Shown here one piece after another: positions 18,224 through 22,404 of a stretch of DNA of 64,000 bases (position 1 is its first letter; the number at the start of each line of letters is the position of its first letter). Origin of the DNA: a virus (taxonomy: Duplodnaviria > Caudoviricetes). Under the pieces are notes generated by a model that was given only the letters and a program-made list of their open reading frames with translations, had not been told where the DNA came from and did not search any database. The stretch lies in IMG/VR virus record IMGVR_UViG_3300014205_000002, positions 144,265-208,264 of that record; one strand, given 5' to 3'. The position numbers and the translations under genes were made by a program.

Positions 18224-18859
18224 TCAGCGCACGCCAGAGGTGCCCCAGCCACCCACCCGGTTGGACGGCGGCAGTGCGTCGACGGGCGTCCAGTCGCCCT
18301 CGACGTAGGCCTCGACACAGATCTGGGCGATGCGATCACCGCCGGTGACCCGGAACGGCCTGTCGGAGTGGTTGTAGAGCACCACGCCGATCTGCTCGCG
18401 GTAGTTGTTGTCGATCAATCCCGCACCGACCTCGATGCCCTCGTTTGAGGAGAGGCCCGAGCGACTCTCGACCACGATCTTGTAGCCGGGTGGCAGCGCG
18501 ACCTTGATGCCGATGCCGAAAGTCTTGCGGCCGCCTGCGGGAATGACGATACTGTCGGCGTTGCCCATGCGCAGAAACTCATAGCCGTCGTCGCCATTGC
18601 GGTACTTGAGGCTGTAGGCGAAGACGTCCGAGGCCACGTCGCCCGGCTGCATGGTCTTGGGCGCAGTGGCCCCTTTCATGACCACCGTGGGAATGCTCAG
18701 CTTGGGGGCGAGGCCCGCGAGTGCGACGATGGCGCGAGCCAGCTCCGGCGTGATGGCGATCGCGTCGGTGTTCAGGCTGCTGGAACCAGCCATGACCGGC
18801 AGGCGCTGGAGCGGCAACACGAGCTCGCCCTGGGCGTTGGTGTAGTGACTAGCGGGCAT
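18224..18859 (-). CDS. dut: Trimeric dUTPase
   Basis: ESRSGLS, GLIDNNYR, GDRIAQ, RVGGWGTSG. Confidence 0.93.
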   Translation of the reverse strand: MPASHYTNAQGELVLPLQRLPVMAGSSSLNTDAIAITPELARAIVALAGLAPKLSIPTVVMKGATAPKTMQPGDVASDVFAYSLKYRNGDDGYEFLRMGNADSIVIPAGGRKTFGIGIKVALPPGYKIVVESRSGLSSNEGIEVGAGLIDNNYREQIGVVLYNHSDRPFRVTGGDRIAQICVEAYVEGDWTPVDALPPSNRVGGWGTSGVR

Positions 18860-20732
18860 GGGGCAGCTCCTTGGTTACAGCGAGTCCTGCGCGCTTGACG
18901 AAGGGAAGGAACTCGGGGACGGGGTGGAGGATGCGCTCGCCGAGCGCGATCCTGATCTGGTTACCCAGATGCCAGCCGAATAGCGGGGGTACCGCATTGC
19001 CGACCTGCCTGTATTGGGCCGAGCGGGGGCCCTGGAAGACCCAGTCGTCGGGGAAACTCTGGAGCCTCGCGGCTTCGCGCACGGTCAGCCGGCGCAGCCT
19101 GCGTGGCGGCGGAGCTGGTACGATGTGGGTGTGGTTGGCCCCGCCCGAGGCGACGATCGTCTGCGCGGGCTGGTCCATGTCCTGGACGCGACCACGGCCG
19201 TTGAAGATGGTCTCGGCGGGGTTTCCGGGCCGGGCCATCAACTCCTTCGCGCGCTCCGAAGCGGGCACGATGGCGATCGCGTTGTCCTCGTGGTTGGGCA
19301 CGGGCAGCAGGTTGGCATTGCCGCAGTCCTGCTCGGCGATGATGGTCTTCGCTGGTGCGTCCCAGCTCATGGCCGGATTACTCAGCTTACCCGCGAGGGC
19401 GCTGGGCCTAGGCGGCGAGGCCGGCTCGTGGTTGGGGACGTCACCCATGATGAAGTCGACGTTACCCGAGGTGTTGATCGTGCGGCCTGGCGCATCGGGA
19501 TCGAGCAGCTTCATGCCCTGACCGACGTGCCCTGCGAGGATGGCCTCTTCATGCGTGCCCGTGTAGACGCTGGCCTCGTGGTTGGCGGGGATGGCCTGCT
19601 GGTGGTGGGCTCGTACGGTGTTGGCAGGCTTGTCCCAGGCGTGCAGGCCGTTGGGGCCGGCCCCGCGATCGGCGGCGTGCTCGATGTGCCTGATCTCACC
19701 GGGCGTGAGCGGGTGATTCACGTGGTTCTCGACCGGTAGCAGGTTCACGTTCCCCGAGCGCTGGTGGGCGATGATGCACGACGCGGGCTCGTCGAGCGCC
19801 ATCGGAGCCTTCATCGACCAGTCGCTCTCGCCGGTGAGCGCGGAGGGTACCGGCGGGGGCGCGGCCTCATGGTTCTCGACGGGGATCAGGTTGTTGGTGC
19901 CGGACTCCTGCTTGGCGATGATCGTACGCGCGACCTGGTCGAGTTCCATCGGTGGGTGTTTCTGAGCCCAGGAGCTGTCGGCGATCGCCGCACATGGTGG
20001 CGGCGGAGGAGCTGGCTCATGGTTGGCGGCGGGGGCGAACGCGGGACCGTAAGGGGCCGGCAGATCGCTGATGGCCTGACGGACCGTGACCCATCTGCGC
20101 AGCGTACCGAAGAAGCCCGGAGTGGGAGTGTCCGCATGCGTCGGCTTCGGCCAGGGGAAGAAGCTCTCGTCGCGTCGGCCGAAGAAGATCACGCGGATGC
20201 GCTTCTGGGGAACGCCGTAGTCGGCCATGTTGATCATGCGGTACTCGACGCTGTAGCCGATGTCCCTGAAAGCCTGGAGGATCACGTCCTTGACCAGAGT
20301 CTGGTCGTCGTCGGTCTTCATCGTGAGTAGCCCCTTGACGTTCTCCATGACGAAACCCCACGGCTTGGCCTCGTCGACGACCCGTACAAACTGCCAGAAC
20401 AGCTTGTTGCGCGGATCGTCCGCCTCGCGCTTGCCAGCGGTAGAGAACCCCTGGCAAGGTGGCCCGCCCACCACGAGGCGGGCCTGACCGGAAACCAGTC
20501 CTGCCGCCTCAAGGATGACCTCGGTGGGAATGGCGCAGATATCGCCCTTGAGCACGGGGATCCCCTGGCGGTTGTGGCGCAGCGTGTCGACGGCGTGCCC
20601 GTCGAGTTCGACCGCAACGCGCACGTCGAACCCCGCGGACTCCAGCCCGATATCCAGGCCCCCGGCCCCCGAGAACAGTGAGATGATCGGCATCGGCCGG
20701 TTGGTCGGACCGTGCATGGGGACGATGGTCAC
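18849..20732 (-). CDS. dcm: DNA cytosine-5 methyltransferase with an expanded, repetitive variable region
   Basis: FSGAGG, GGPPCQGFS, MENVKGL, YGVPQKRIR, RRLTVREAARLQSFPD, YRQVGNAVPP. Confidence 0.95.
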   Translation of the reverse strand: MTIVPMHGPTNRPMPIISLFSGAGGLDIGLESAGFDVRVAVELDGHAVDTLRHNRQGIPVLKGDICAIPTEVILEAAGLVSGQARLVVGGPPCQGFSTAGKREADDPRNKLFWQFVRVVDEAKPWGFVMENVKGLLTMKTDDDQTLVKDVILQAFRDIGYSVEYRMINMADYGVPQKRIRVIFFGRRDESFFPWPKPTHADTPTPGFFGTLRRWVTVRQAISDLPAPYGPAFAPAANHEPAPPPPPCAAIADSSWAQKHPPMELDQVARTIIAKQESGTNNLIPVENHEAAPPPVPSALTGESDWSMKAPMALDEPASCIIAHQRSGNVNLLPVENHVNHPLTPGEIRHIEHAADRGAGPNGLHAWDKPANTVRAHHQQAIPANHEASVYTGTHEEAILAGHVGQGMKLLDPDAPGRTINTSGNVDFIMGDVPNHEPASPPRPSALAGKLSNPAMSWDAPAKTIIAEQDCGNANLLPVPNHEDNAIAIVPASERAKELMARPGNPAETIFNGRGRVQDMDQPAQTIVASGGANHTHIVPAPPPRRLRRLTVREAARLQSFPDDWVFQGPRSAQYRQVGNAVPPLFGWHLGNQIRIALGERILHPVPEFLPFVKRAGLAVTKELPHAR

Positions 20733-20785
20733 GTAACTCTCCTCGGGAAGCCCAGTTTAGCAGAAAAGCGAGCCCTACGGAACCC

Positions 20786-21568
20786 TCAGGATCCGCTCGC
20801 GGCGATGGACAGCGCCATCATGCGTACGGCCTGAATGTGGGCCGGAATTGGTCGGTCCAGCCTTGCGGCCTCTTGCTCCTGGCGGCGCTTCTTGCGATCA
20901 GCGTAGCCGAACTCGTCCAGTGAACGGGCATCTATGCGCCAGTTGTGGCCGAACTTCCAGCCCTTCATCTGGCCCTTCTGGAGGGCAGTGAGTACATAGG
21001 CGCGCGGCCTGTCGAGCTTCTTCGCGGCTTCGGCACAACCGACCCATGCGCTGGTGTGCTGGGGGTAGATCGTTTTGAGGATTGCCAGGGCTTCCTGCGT
21101 GACGAAGGCGAACGCCCCCTCGCCATAGGCTGGCATGTTGAGCTTCGCGAGTTGGACGCGGATGCTATTGGGTGAGATGCCCAGTTCCCGTGCGACCATG
21201 GTGATATTTGGGTCTCCCTGGGCCTCTAGGGGGTTGAGTCGATCCTTGCGGATCTTCCAGGCCACCTGGCCGCCGGTAAACTTGGTGCCGAGTCGCGTGT
21301 TGATGTAGCGGGCAATCTTATGGGGCGGATACTTGCCGAGGAAGGTGTGTAGCAACTCCAGCGCGGCGGGGCGCTTCGCCCAGACGTCCTCATAGGGAGT
21401 GACTGGTACATACTTTTGCAGCGCCGACTGGCCGAAGGTGGCGTCATAGCGCTGGTTGAAGAGGGCGATTGTCTCAGCCCAGGTATGCCTGGTCCTGAGG
21501 TCGCACAGGTCGGCGATGATCGCGGGCGTCCACCGGAAGATCGCGTCACCTTTACGGGTGTGCATCAT
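20786..21568 (-). CDS. Multi-HTH DNA-binding protein with a C-terminal excisionase-like HTH
   Basis: ITMVARELGISPNSIR and AEAAKKLDRPRAYVLTALQKGQMKGWKFGHNWRI. Start MMHTRK. Confidence 0.7.
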   Translation of the reverse strand: MMHTRKGDAIFRWTPAIIADLCDLRTRHTWAETIALFNQRYDATFGQSALQKYVPVTPYEDVWAKRPAALELLHTFLGKYPPHKIARYINTRLGTKFTGGQVAWKIRKDRLNPLEAQGDPNITMVARELGISPNSIRVQLAKLNMPAYGEGAFAFVTQEALAILKTIYPQHTSAWVGCAEAAKKLDRPRAYVLTALQKGQMKGWKFGHNWRIDARSLDEFGYADRKKRRQEQEAARLDRPIPAHIQAVRMMALSIAASGS

Positions 21569-22404
21569 GGGGTTTGGTCTCCTGTTCTGGGGGACAGTGC
21601 CGGGGCAATGCCGCCGGAGGCGGCCAGGTGTTGGAGGTGCTTCCAGACGGCGTAGGCGACGACGCCGATCCGATCCTGATCGCCGGGCTTGACCTGGCCG
21701 TTTTCCAGGAGGTTGACCGTGACGCCGTTCATCGCCAACGCCTGGACGAGCTCGGGGTAGGTGGCGATCGCCGAGTATGGAATACAGGCGAAGGCGCTGT
21801 GGCCTGGGCTCGCGTACCATTCGTGGCTACACCAGCAGATCGAGCACCCCATCGAGGCCCCGCCTTTGCCGCAACGCGAACAGCTGTAGAGTGGATTGCC
21901 GCCACCGGTCATCCCTGCACCCGCGACGCTCCGGAGGACGCGCCCTTGGCAGTGGCGGCACATATGCGGCTCAACCACCCATGTAACGCGCCCCTGTGTG
22001 TCGTCGGGTATCGGAAACCCCGCGGCCATGGCCCGCTCAAAGTCGCGCCGGAGTACGATGCCGATCCGCGAGCCCTTGAGGCCGTCGTTCCAGTCGCACC
22101 CGCAGCTGCCGAAGGCTGGCCGCAGGATCGCCTTGGCCGCCTCGGGTACCGTTGGCGCATACATCGCGTTCATGTCGACACAGCGGTAGCCGTTGTCGCC
22201 CGAGCTGTAGCCGCACCAGCAGAGCTTGGTCAACTCGTCGCTCTTGCCGCACTCTGGACAAAAGAACATGCCCTCGCCGCCCAGCCACGAGAGTAGCCGT
22301 CCGCCGCAGCGGCACAGGTGAGTCGATAGCCGGTAGCGCTCAGGAGAGCGCGTCTTGCCCGGCCACATGATTGTGCGAGCGCGCACCATCGTGCCTCCCG
22401 CCAT
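21565..22404 (-). CDS. Cys-rich protein with an internally duplicated Zn-binding domain
   Basis: HLCRCGGRLL..CPECGK..CWCG is repeated as HMCRHCQGRVL..CSRCGK..CWCS. Confidence 0.7.
   Translation of the reverse strand: MAGGTMVRARTIMWPGKTRSPERYRLSTHLCRCGGRLLSWLGGEGMFFCPECGKSDELTKLCWCGYSSGDNGYRCVDMNAMYAPTVPEAAKAILRPAFGSCGCDWNDGLKGSRIGIVLRRDFERAMAAGFPIPDDTQGRVTWVVEPHMCRHCQGRVLRSVAGAGMTGGGNPLYSCSRCGKGGASMGCSICWCSHEWYASPGHSAFACIPYSAIATYPELVQALAMNGVTVNLLENGQVKPGDQDRIGVVAYAVWKHLQHLAASGGIAPALSPRTGDQTP

Follow-up and report, generated by a model that had tools for sequence, protein, structure and literature searches.

A phage C5 cytosine methyltransferase with six tandem recognition-domain units, a candidate multispecific enzyme

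The final 64 kb of the complete, 208,264-bp virus record IMGVR_UViG_3300014205_000002 (Caudoviricetes; direct terminal repeats; 64% G+C), hereafter the window (64,000 nucleotides, positions 144,265 to 208,264 of the record), carries on its complementary strand a gene (18849..20732) whose predicted product is an intact C5 cytosine methyltransferase with an M.HaeIII-like core. Between motifs VIII and IX of this core lie six tandem units of 46-66 aa, which, to judge from their sequence, are copies of the frame of a target-recognition domain (TRD). Where M.HaeIII-like monospecific methylases have a single recognition unit, six are found here. We consider it rather likely that the enzyme is multispecific and methylates two or more targets. 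It is probably an orphan phage methyltransferase, whose multispecific methylation of short sites would shield the phage DNA and serve in anti-restriction.

The six units share the frame NH ... D-x-P-x-x-T-[IV] and are all encoded on the same strand as the rest of the gene. Three of them belong to type A: module 1 (aa 237-286; 19875..20024), which reads NH237 ... D265-Q-V-A-R-T-I, module 2 (aa 287-335; 19728..19874), with NH287 ... D314-E-P-A-S-C-I, and module 5 (aa 434-479; 19296..19433), with NH434 ... D458-A-P-A-K-T-I. Module 3 (type B; aa 336-383; 19584..19727; NH336 ... D367-K-P-A-N-T-V), module 4 (type C; aa 384-433; 19434..19583; NH384 ... D413-A-P-G-R-T-I) and module 6 (type D; aa 480-545; 19098..19295; NH480 ... 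D520-Q-P-A-Q-T-I) are each of their own type, and a further NH, the seventh, closes module 6 at aa 533 (nt 19136). From module 1 to module 6, the NH-to-D spacings are 28, 27, 31, 29, 24 and 40 aa. The first-pass annotation of the window had placed the six NH starts at 20024, 19874, 19727, 19583, 19433 and 19295, which proved exact (aa 237, 287, 336, 384, 434 and 480), and had described a motif D-x-[PV]-[AG]-x-[TC]-[IV] in each module, which is indeed present at aa 265, 314, 367, 413, 458 and 520. Chance hardly produces such a pattern: in 20,000 shuffles of aa 228-548, frames averaged 0.003 and NH dipeptides 1.2, and none came up to the 6 frames and 8 NH observed.

Modules 1, 2 and 5, already singled out in that annotation as a closer subfamily, are paralogues, with local alignment z-scores of 14-22 against shuffles (14-18 for module 5 against modules 1 and 2). 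They open with proline-rich, PAPPPPP-like stretches. Pairs of units of different types within the protein are little alike beyond the frame (z-scores of 0-7). Since the type A copies are only 67-75% alike at the DNA level and Tandem Repeats Finder detected no array in the DNA of this region, the duplications appear to be old and not the product of recent slippage.

What one unit represents is best seen in enzymes that have a single recognition domain. An alignment of 66 single-domain phage methylases yields the variable-region consensus NH ... D.P..TI ... HP ... R..TVRE, which indicates that the repeated unit corresponds to the variable region, in its entirety, of a compact M.HaeIII-like enzyme. 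The published TRD consensus, (YFW)x(RK)x5-P-(STCA)-P-T-(ILV)-(TASV)-x5-16-H, includes a 'TL' motif around which residues touch DNA in the M.HhaI and M.HaeIII structures (PMC2413257); its P-x-x-T-[IV] ... H part is found in all six modules. Furthermore, two phage methylases predicted to be monospecific, P0129 and P0127, contain exactly one unit of about 45 aa. The AlphaFold2 model of P0129 (predicted local distance difference test, pLDDT, 87.8) can be superposed along its entire length on M.HaeIII (Z 35.0; root-mean-square deviation 1.9 A; 283/324 residues), and therefore one unit suffices for the small domain.

Module 6 is, by its alignment, an M.HaeIII-like and near full-size recognition unit. 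It aligns to M.HaeIII residues 219-250, around T237-V238 of the recognition loop, and resembles the sole recognition domain of the methylase of Burkholderia phage vB_SR4 (P0138; z 13.2) and that of P0122 (z 20). Further monospecific phage methylases are matched by a profile of type D. Its target need not be GGCC, since Arg229 and Arg243 of M.HaeIII are replaced by Gln517 and Gly531 (judged in the light of PMC2413257). When single modules were searched by tblastn against deposited phages, types A and B returned no match, type C a chance match (E = 0.3) and type D the Burkholderia phages. A PDB search with the variable region alone, a search among shorter proteins and an exact-peptide scan of IMG/VR returned no match, and the ESM Atlas gave only generic methylase clusters with low scores.

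The catalytic core into which the array is inserted is complete. Two stretches, one at aa 15-202 and one at the C-terminal end, match both PF00145 (E = 3.9e-65; 220.8 bits, curated cut-off 22) and TIGR00675 (E = 6.7e-60; 203.4 bits, curated cut-off 100.65). Its N-terminal catalytic part (aa 14-187; 20172..20693) aligns to M.HaeIII residues 1-171 and contains motif I (FSGAGG, aa 20-25), motif IV (PPCQ, aa 91-94, with the catalytic Cys93), motif VI (ENV, aa 130-132) and motif VIII (QKRIR, aa 176-180). The second PF00145 stretch (18933..19097; pLDDT 93-96) holds motif IX (RRLTVREAARLQSFPDD, aa 547-563, including RRLTVRE at aa 547-553) and motif X (GNAVPP, aa 578-583, with GNAVP at aa 578-582), so that motifs I, IV, VI, VIII, IX and X stand in canonical order. 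The columns of the catalytic motifs are invariant across an alignment of 70 methylases. In the AlphaFold2 model of the whole protein, confident modelling is limited to this core (pLDDT >90), which Foldseek matches to the M.HaeIII structures 1dct and 3ubt with template modelling scores of 0.76-0.77 by target length and E of about 1e-20.

The whole architecture was found in only three other proteins, P0003, P0004 and P0005. The gene for P0004 belongs to a related phage with a complete genome of 203,733 bp, where it occupies the syntenic locus. Unit order is A-A-B-C-A-D in the enzyme described here, A-A-B-C-D in P0003, which lacks the counterpart of module 5, A-E-C-B-D-A in P0004, and A-A-C-B-A in P0005, from which type D is absent. 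Each unit finds its best partner in the other proteins in a unit of the same type. Module 1 is closest to module 1 of P0003 and module 2 of P0005, and module 2 is 83% identical to module 2 of P0003. The orthologous units of module 3 are P0003 module 3 (83%), P0005 module 4 (62%) and P0004 module 4 (57%), and those of module 4 are P0003 module 4 (76%), P0005 module 3 (57%) and P0004 module 3 (53%). Overall identity to P0003 is 71-83% for the units and 85-92% for the core, and to P0004 48-57% and 63-67%, respectively. Because orthologous units are almost as conserved as the core, every unit type seems to have been kept by selection at a rate near that of the core. The suggestion of an expandable cassette, for which the first-pass annotation had advised comparing module numbers among homologues, is supported by this comparison: the orthologues have 5, 6 and 5 permuted units, and a sister lineage 1 to 5. 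No variant with more or fewer units was found among the contigs of one landfill metagenome run, from which the DNA of the window probably derives. P0004 (L005:7986-10100) and P0005 also bear a C-terminal extension of about 150 aa, which ends in a degenerate second copy of motifs IX and X (RRLGV.EVARL.T.PDDW ... EQY ... G.PPLF) where GNAVP is replaced.

The sister lineage points to a wider traffic of units. Among about 95 other C5 methylase open reading frames (ORFs) from IMG/VR, the frame was counted 0 times in 50, once in 41, twice in 2 and 3 times in 1 (L014). Another of these loci, L019 (6171-7490), encodes a methylase with three NH units, of the form NH ... TL ... HPGPM, and in its lineage (P0125-P0132) the number of units is 1 in P0127, 3 in P0125 and P0126, 4 in P0128 and 5 in P0132. 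The design is the same as in the enzyme of the window, but the cores are only 33-34% identical to it and the unit types mostly differ. One unit type of the lineage stands alone in P0127 and within arrays in P0125, P0126 and P0128. The third unit of P0126, however, is of type A (z 16.5 against module 1 and 18.9 against module 2; profile E = 6e-22) and is about 54% identical to module 2, whereas the cores of the two enzymes are only 34% identical. Such a distribution indicates that units move between methylase genes, and it is likely that phage methylases draw their modules from a common pool. Module 3 is matched weakly by the first unit of P0132 (z 6.5). A phmmer search of the whole library with the variable region returned P0003, P0004, the fragment P0122 and a spurious eukaryotic repeat protein (P0123) and missed P0126; as a single 47-aa unit cannot reach significance there, this outcome is no proof that the units are rare.

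Further members of this set show mixed or divergent layouts. P0128 combines two full-size canonical TRDs with compact ones, and in P0130 a type A unit truncated to a stub (NHEPAPTPAADKPQ) immediately precedes motif IX. The phage C5 methylase of L014 (L014:5920-7317; IMGVR_UViG_3300015606_001269) contains five short units [LV]-D-[EH]-P-x-x-[TA]-[ILV] that lack the NH bracket. It shares the principle of repeated units with the present enzyme (five, of the D-E-P-x-x-T kind), and appears to be a third type of arrangement in which recognition frames are repeated.

Cytosine methylases with more than one specificity were first recognised in the 1980s, and those of the Bacillus phage group have two to three active specificities. 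Orphan methylases of Bacillus phages are multispecific through multiple TRDs (PMC5923457). These enzymes of temperate phages (M.SPRI, M.Phi3TI, M.Rho11sI, M.H2I and M.SPBetaI, the product of mtbP) are, like the one described here, phage-borne, and likewise combine one core with tandem recognition domains between motifs VIII and IX, each with T-[LIV]. In SPbeta, the neighbourhood of mtbP includes the genes for thymidylate kinase and dUTPase as well as nrdEF, and the gene of the window also lies among genes of nucleotide metabolism. The resemblance does not extend to the cores, in which kinship indicating common descent with the SPbeta group was not found: by BLASTP, the core is 25% identical to the 443-aa SPbeta enzyme over 220 aa (E = 2e-15) and much nearer to M.HaeIII (E = 1.6e-41), which makes it a separate lineage with the same design. 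Moreover, the SPbeta enzyme has a Cys-rich insert after motif IV, which is missing here, and two TL frames, in contrast to six NH-bracketed units that each repeat a whole compact variable region; host range and phage type also differ, the present phage having a 208-kb genome of 64% G+C. The view that the array evolved independently thus holds for the enzyme lineage, but not for the cassettes, given that type A occurs in P0126 and type D in monospecific enzymes.

The best solved relative of the core is M.HaeIII (PDB 1dct, 3ubt), a monospecific enzyme for GGCC with one TRD as opposed to six. Among deposited phage genomes, the best match is the 329-aa methylase of Burkholderia phage vB_SR4 (XRX04713.1), together with eight related Burkholderia phage records. 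It is 38% identical in the core and 43% in the C-terminal part, has a single TRD of type D and no array, and adjoins an integrase gene in a 38.5-kb phage genome. Outside the SPbeta group, M.BssHII and M.phiBssHII are said to be multispecific with TRDs at separated locations, in work attributed to Schumann in 1996 and Sethmann in 1999; here, by contrast, the six units are contiguous. In the literature found, multispecific C5 methylases are described only for Bacillus phages and M.BssHII, and PDB sequence searches returned single-TRD enzymes only, so that no C5 methylase with multiple specificities was found among solved structures.

The mechanism that we propose builds on these likenesses. The conserved frame, which each unit keeps, would hold the recognition loops against DNA as in single-domain enzymes, and the residues between and around the frame differ by type (A, B, C or D). 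One unit at a time would dock with the core on DNA, and several different short (4-5 bp), G+C-rich sequences could be methylated by one enzyme. Sites too common in the 208-kb genome to be lost by mutation would be shielded by methylation against Type II restriction, and the rarer 6-bp sites would be removed from the genome instead. Recombination at the conserved boundaries may add, delete and reorder units and exchange them between methylase genes.

The content of restriction sites is consistent with such a division. The genome of the present phage is purged of CTCGAG (0 against 112 expected), CTGCAG (0/50) and GGCGCC (0/120), and nearly purged of GTGCAC (2/27), TTCGAA (4/21) and TGGCCA (16/83). 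The related 203,733-bp phage (G001, L087-L097) is likewise without CTCGAG (0 against 138 expected), CTGCAG, GTGCAC and TTCGAA, as well as AGGCCT (0/107), CAGCTG (0/158), GAGCTC (0/143), GGTACC (0/19.5), TCCGGA (0/23) and CGTACG (0/23.5), and has CTNAG at 20/176. In both phages GGCC, CCGG, GCGC, CGCG, CCWGG, GCNGC and CCNGG occur at 0.92-1.09 of expectation, and no depleted G+C-rich site of 4-5 bp was found in either. Purged 6-bp palindromes next to undepleted short sites are consistent with methylation of the short sites: under restriction pressure as strong as this, a phage can shed its 6-bp sites but not those present in their thousands, a gap that a methylase for several short sites would close. 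The related phage retains GGCGCC (333 against 316 expected). This difference between the two genomes coincides with unit E, which of the two methylases only that of the related phage (P0004) possesses; a link between unit E and GGCGCC retention is speculative.

Several points weigh against multispecificity. Undepleted 4-5-mers also fit hosts that simply lack restriction enzymes for such sites. AlphaFold2 places modules 1, 2, 3 and 5 at pLDDT <50. Neither the phmmer search of the whole library nor tblastn of deposited phages nor profiles brought up an enzyme whose sole TRD is of type A, B or C. Some units may be inactive 'pseudo' domains, and the proline-rich start of the type A units could be a mere linker. 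Finally, no description of a multispecific enzyme with six active TRDs was found in the literature searched, which did not include the original Trautner-group papers.

The whole-protein AlphaFold2 model, which the first-pass annotation had suggested, was built from 70 alignment rows and gave no usable model of modules 1-5. Its confident pieces in the array region, aa 381-405 and 490-540, coincide with aligned monospecific rows, which makes it a composite that says nothing on the folding of the units. In view of its low pLDDT and composite nature, it was rejected as evidence on the modules.

A possible, if rather unlikely, alternative is that the enzyme is effectively mono- or bispecific, with module 6 and perhaps one more unit reading DNA and the others being pseudo-TRDs or a structured spacer. 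The low pLDDT of modules 1, 2, 3 and 5 and the PAPPPPP-like starts of type A agree with it, as does the restriction of clear kin among single-TRD enzymes and M.HaeIII to type D; Lange et al. reportedly described inactive 'pseudo' domains in Bacillus phage enzymes in 1991. A reading unit of type D cannot serve P0005, however, which has none, and the unit next to motif IX is of type A in P0004, P0005 and P0126, so that type A is not a mere spacer. Nor would spacers retain type-specific motifs such as W..KH.PM.LD.PA.TI.A.Q.SG..NL, or be conserved, as every unit type is, near the core rate across phages whose cores are 63% identical.

The opposite extreme goes beyond multispecificity as such: all six units would be active on different 4-5-bp targets, as members of a pool of cassettes of about 45 aa that recombine between unrelated cores, and would, together with the purging of 6-bp sites, afford near-complete evasion of Type II restriction. 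We regard this as decidedly unlikely. To our knowledge, six active recognition domains would exceed any known multispecific enzyme.

The six units could also build one composite recognition domain, for a long or bipartite target or for relaxed, near context-free methylation of cytosines. All units do lie in one polypeptide at short, regular spacing, and very broad methylation would benefit the phage. Between orthologues at the same locus, however, units are permuted, added and lost, which a cooperative structure would not easily tolerate, and type D and the unit of the L019 lineage in P0127 stand alone in relatives predicted to be monospecific; we consider a composite domain very unlikely. It is extremely improbable that the protein lacks DNA methylase activity altogether, either because its gene is decaying or because it binds DNA and uses the array otherwise, in view of its intact catalytic motifs (Cys93, ENV, QxRxR), its 627 open codons, the Shine-Dalgarno sequence before its start, the overlap with the dUTPase start and its conserved orthologues. 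A look-up of sequencing runs found none of RNA for this DNA, which would agree with such a reading.

If the enzyme is multispecific, as we favour, this design would occur in a methylase lineage other than that of the Bacillus phage group. At stake is the way in which a single catalytic domain works with more than one recognition domain, and small, sharply bounded units that vary in number and order and are shared between cores are well suited to deletion, swapping and structural work. A table assigning cassettes to targets would help to predict 5-methylcytosine motifs from metagenomes and to design methylases with chosen targets. Should all six units be active, differences between relatives might map single cassettes to single sites, as for GGCGCC and unit E. 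The site content further suggests a division of labour in the evasion of host defence, in which rare 6-bp sites are purged and frequent short ones methylated.

The methylase ORF, identified from the ORF list and its PF00145 and TIGR00675 matches, encodes 627 aa from a GTG at 20732, or 622 aa if translation starts at the ATG at 20717, and ends with a TAG at 18851-18849. A Shine-Dalgarno-like GAGGAG (20739..20744, complementary strand), read from the sequence, lies 6 nt upstream of the GTG. Downstream on the same strand, a dUTPase gene (18224..18859; PF00692, E = 3.4e-19; phrog_135, E = 1.8e-28) starts with an ATG at 18859 and overlaps the end of the methylase gene by 11 nt. Because of this overlap the two genes are probably co-transcribed, and the dUTPase is probably translationally coupled to the methylase. 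The dUTPase domain occupies aa 103-202, after an N-terminal extension of about 100 aa that has no family match.

The other neighbours are a lytic transglycosylase gene, genes whose products match no family and a large ORF resembling a ribonucleotide reductase, an assignment made by reading the ORF by eye, without a family search. Neither a restriction enzyme nor a nuclease family was found among the 9 neighbouring ORFs scanned with Pfam and PHROGs, 7 of which have no PHROG family (20786-21820 and 21565-22404 among them) and 5 no Pfam family either. The product of 21565-22404, on the complementary strand, is rich in cysteine, has 279 aa and several CxxC pairs and belongs to no Pfam or PHROG family; in the related phage, two tandem look-alikes of it are encoded at the corresponding position, upstream of the methylase gene (L005 4034-4996).

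In profile searches of the 208-kb genome, the methylase gene was the sole one of family PF00145, and no N4/N6 methylase (PF01555) was found. Apart from PF00145, the only family of DNA methylases that was detected is represented by a Dam-like (D12 class) adenine methylase encoded outside the window (G000:C1:68629-68949, complementary strand); GATC occurs at 1.19 of expectation. Long ORFs in other frames are present within the methylase gene, at 18871-19521, 19014-19739 and 19764-20330 on the forward strand and at 20017-20457 on the complementary strand. Their translations have weaker look-alikes (39-50% identity) at the corresponding position in the related phage, and we interpret these ORFs as shadows that the main frame, being conserved, casts in DNA rich in G+C.

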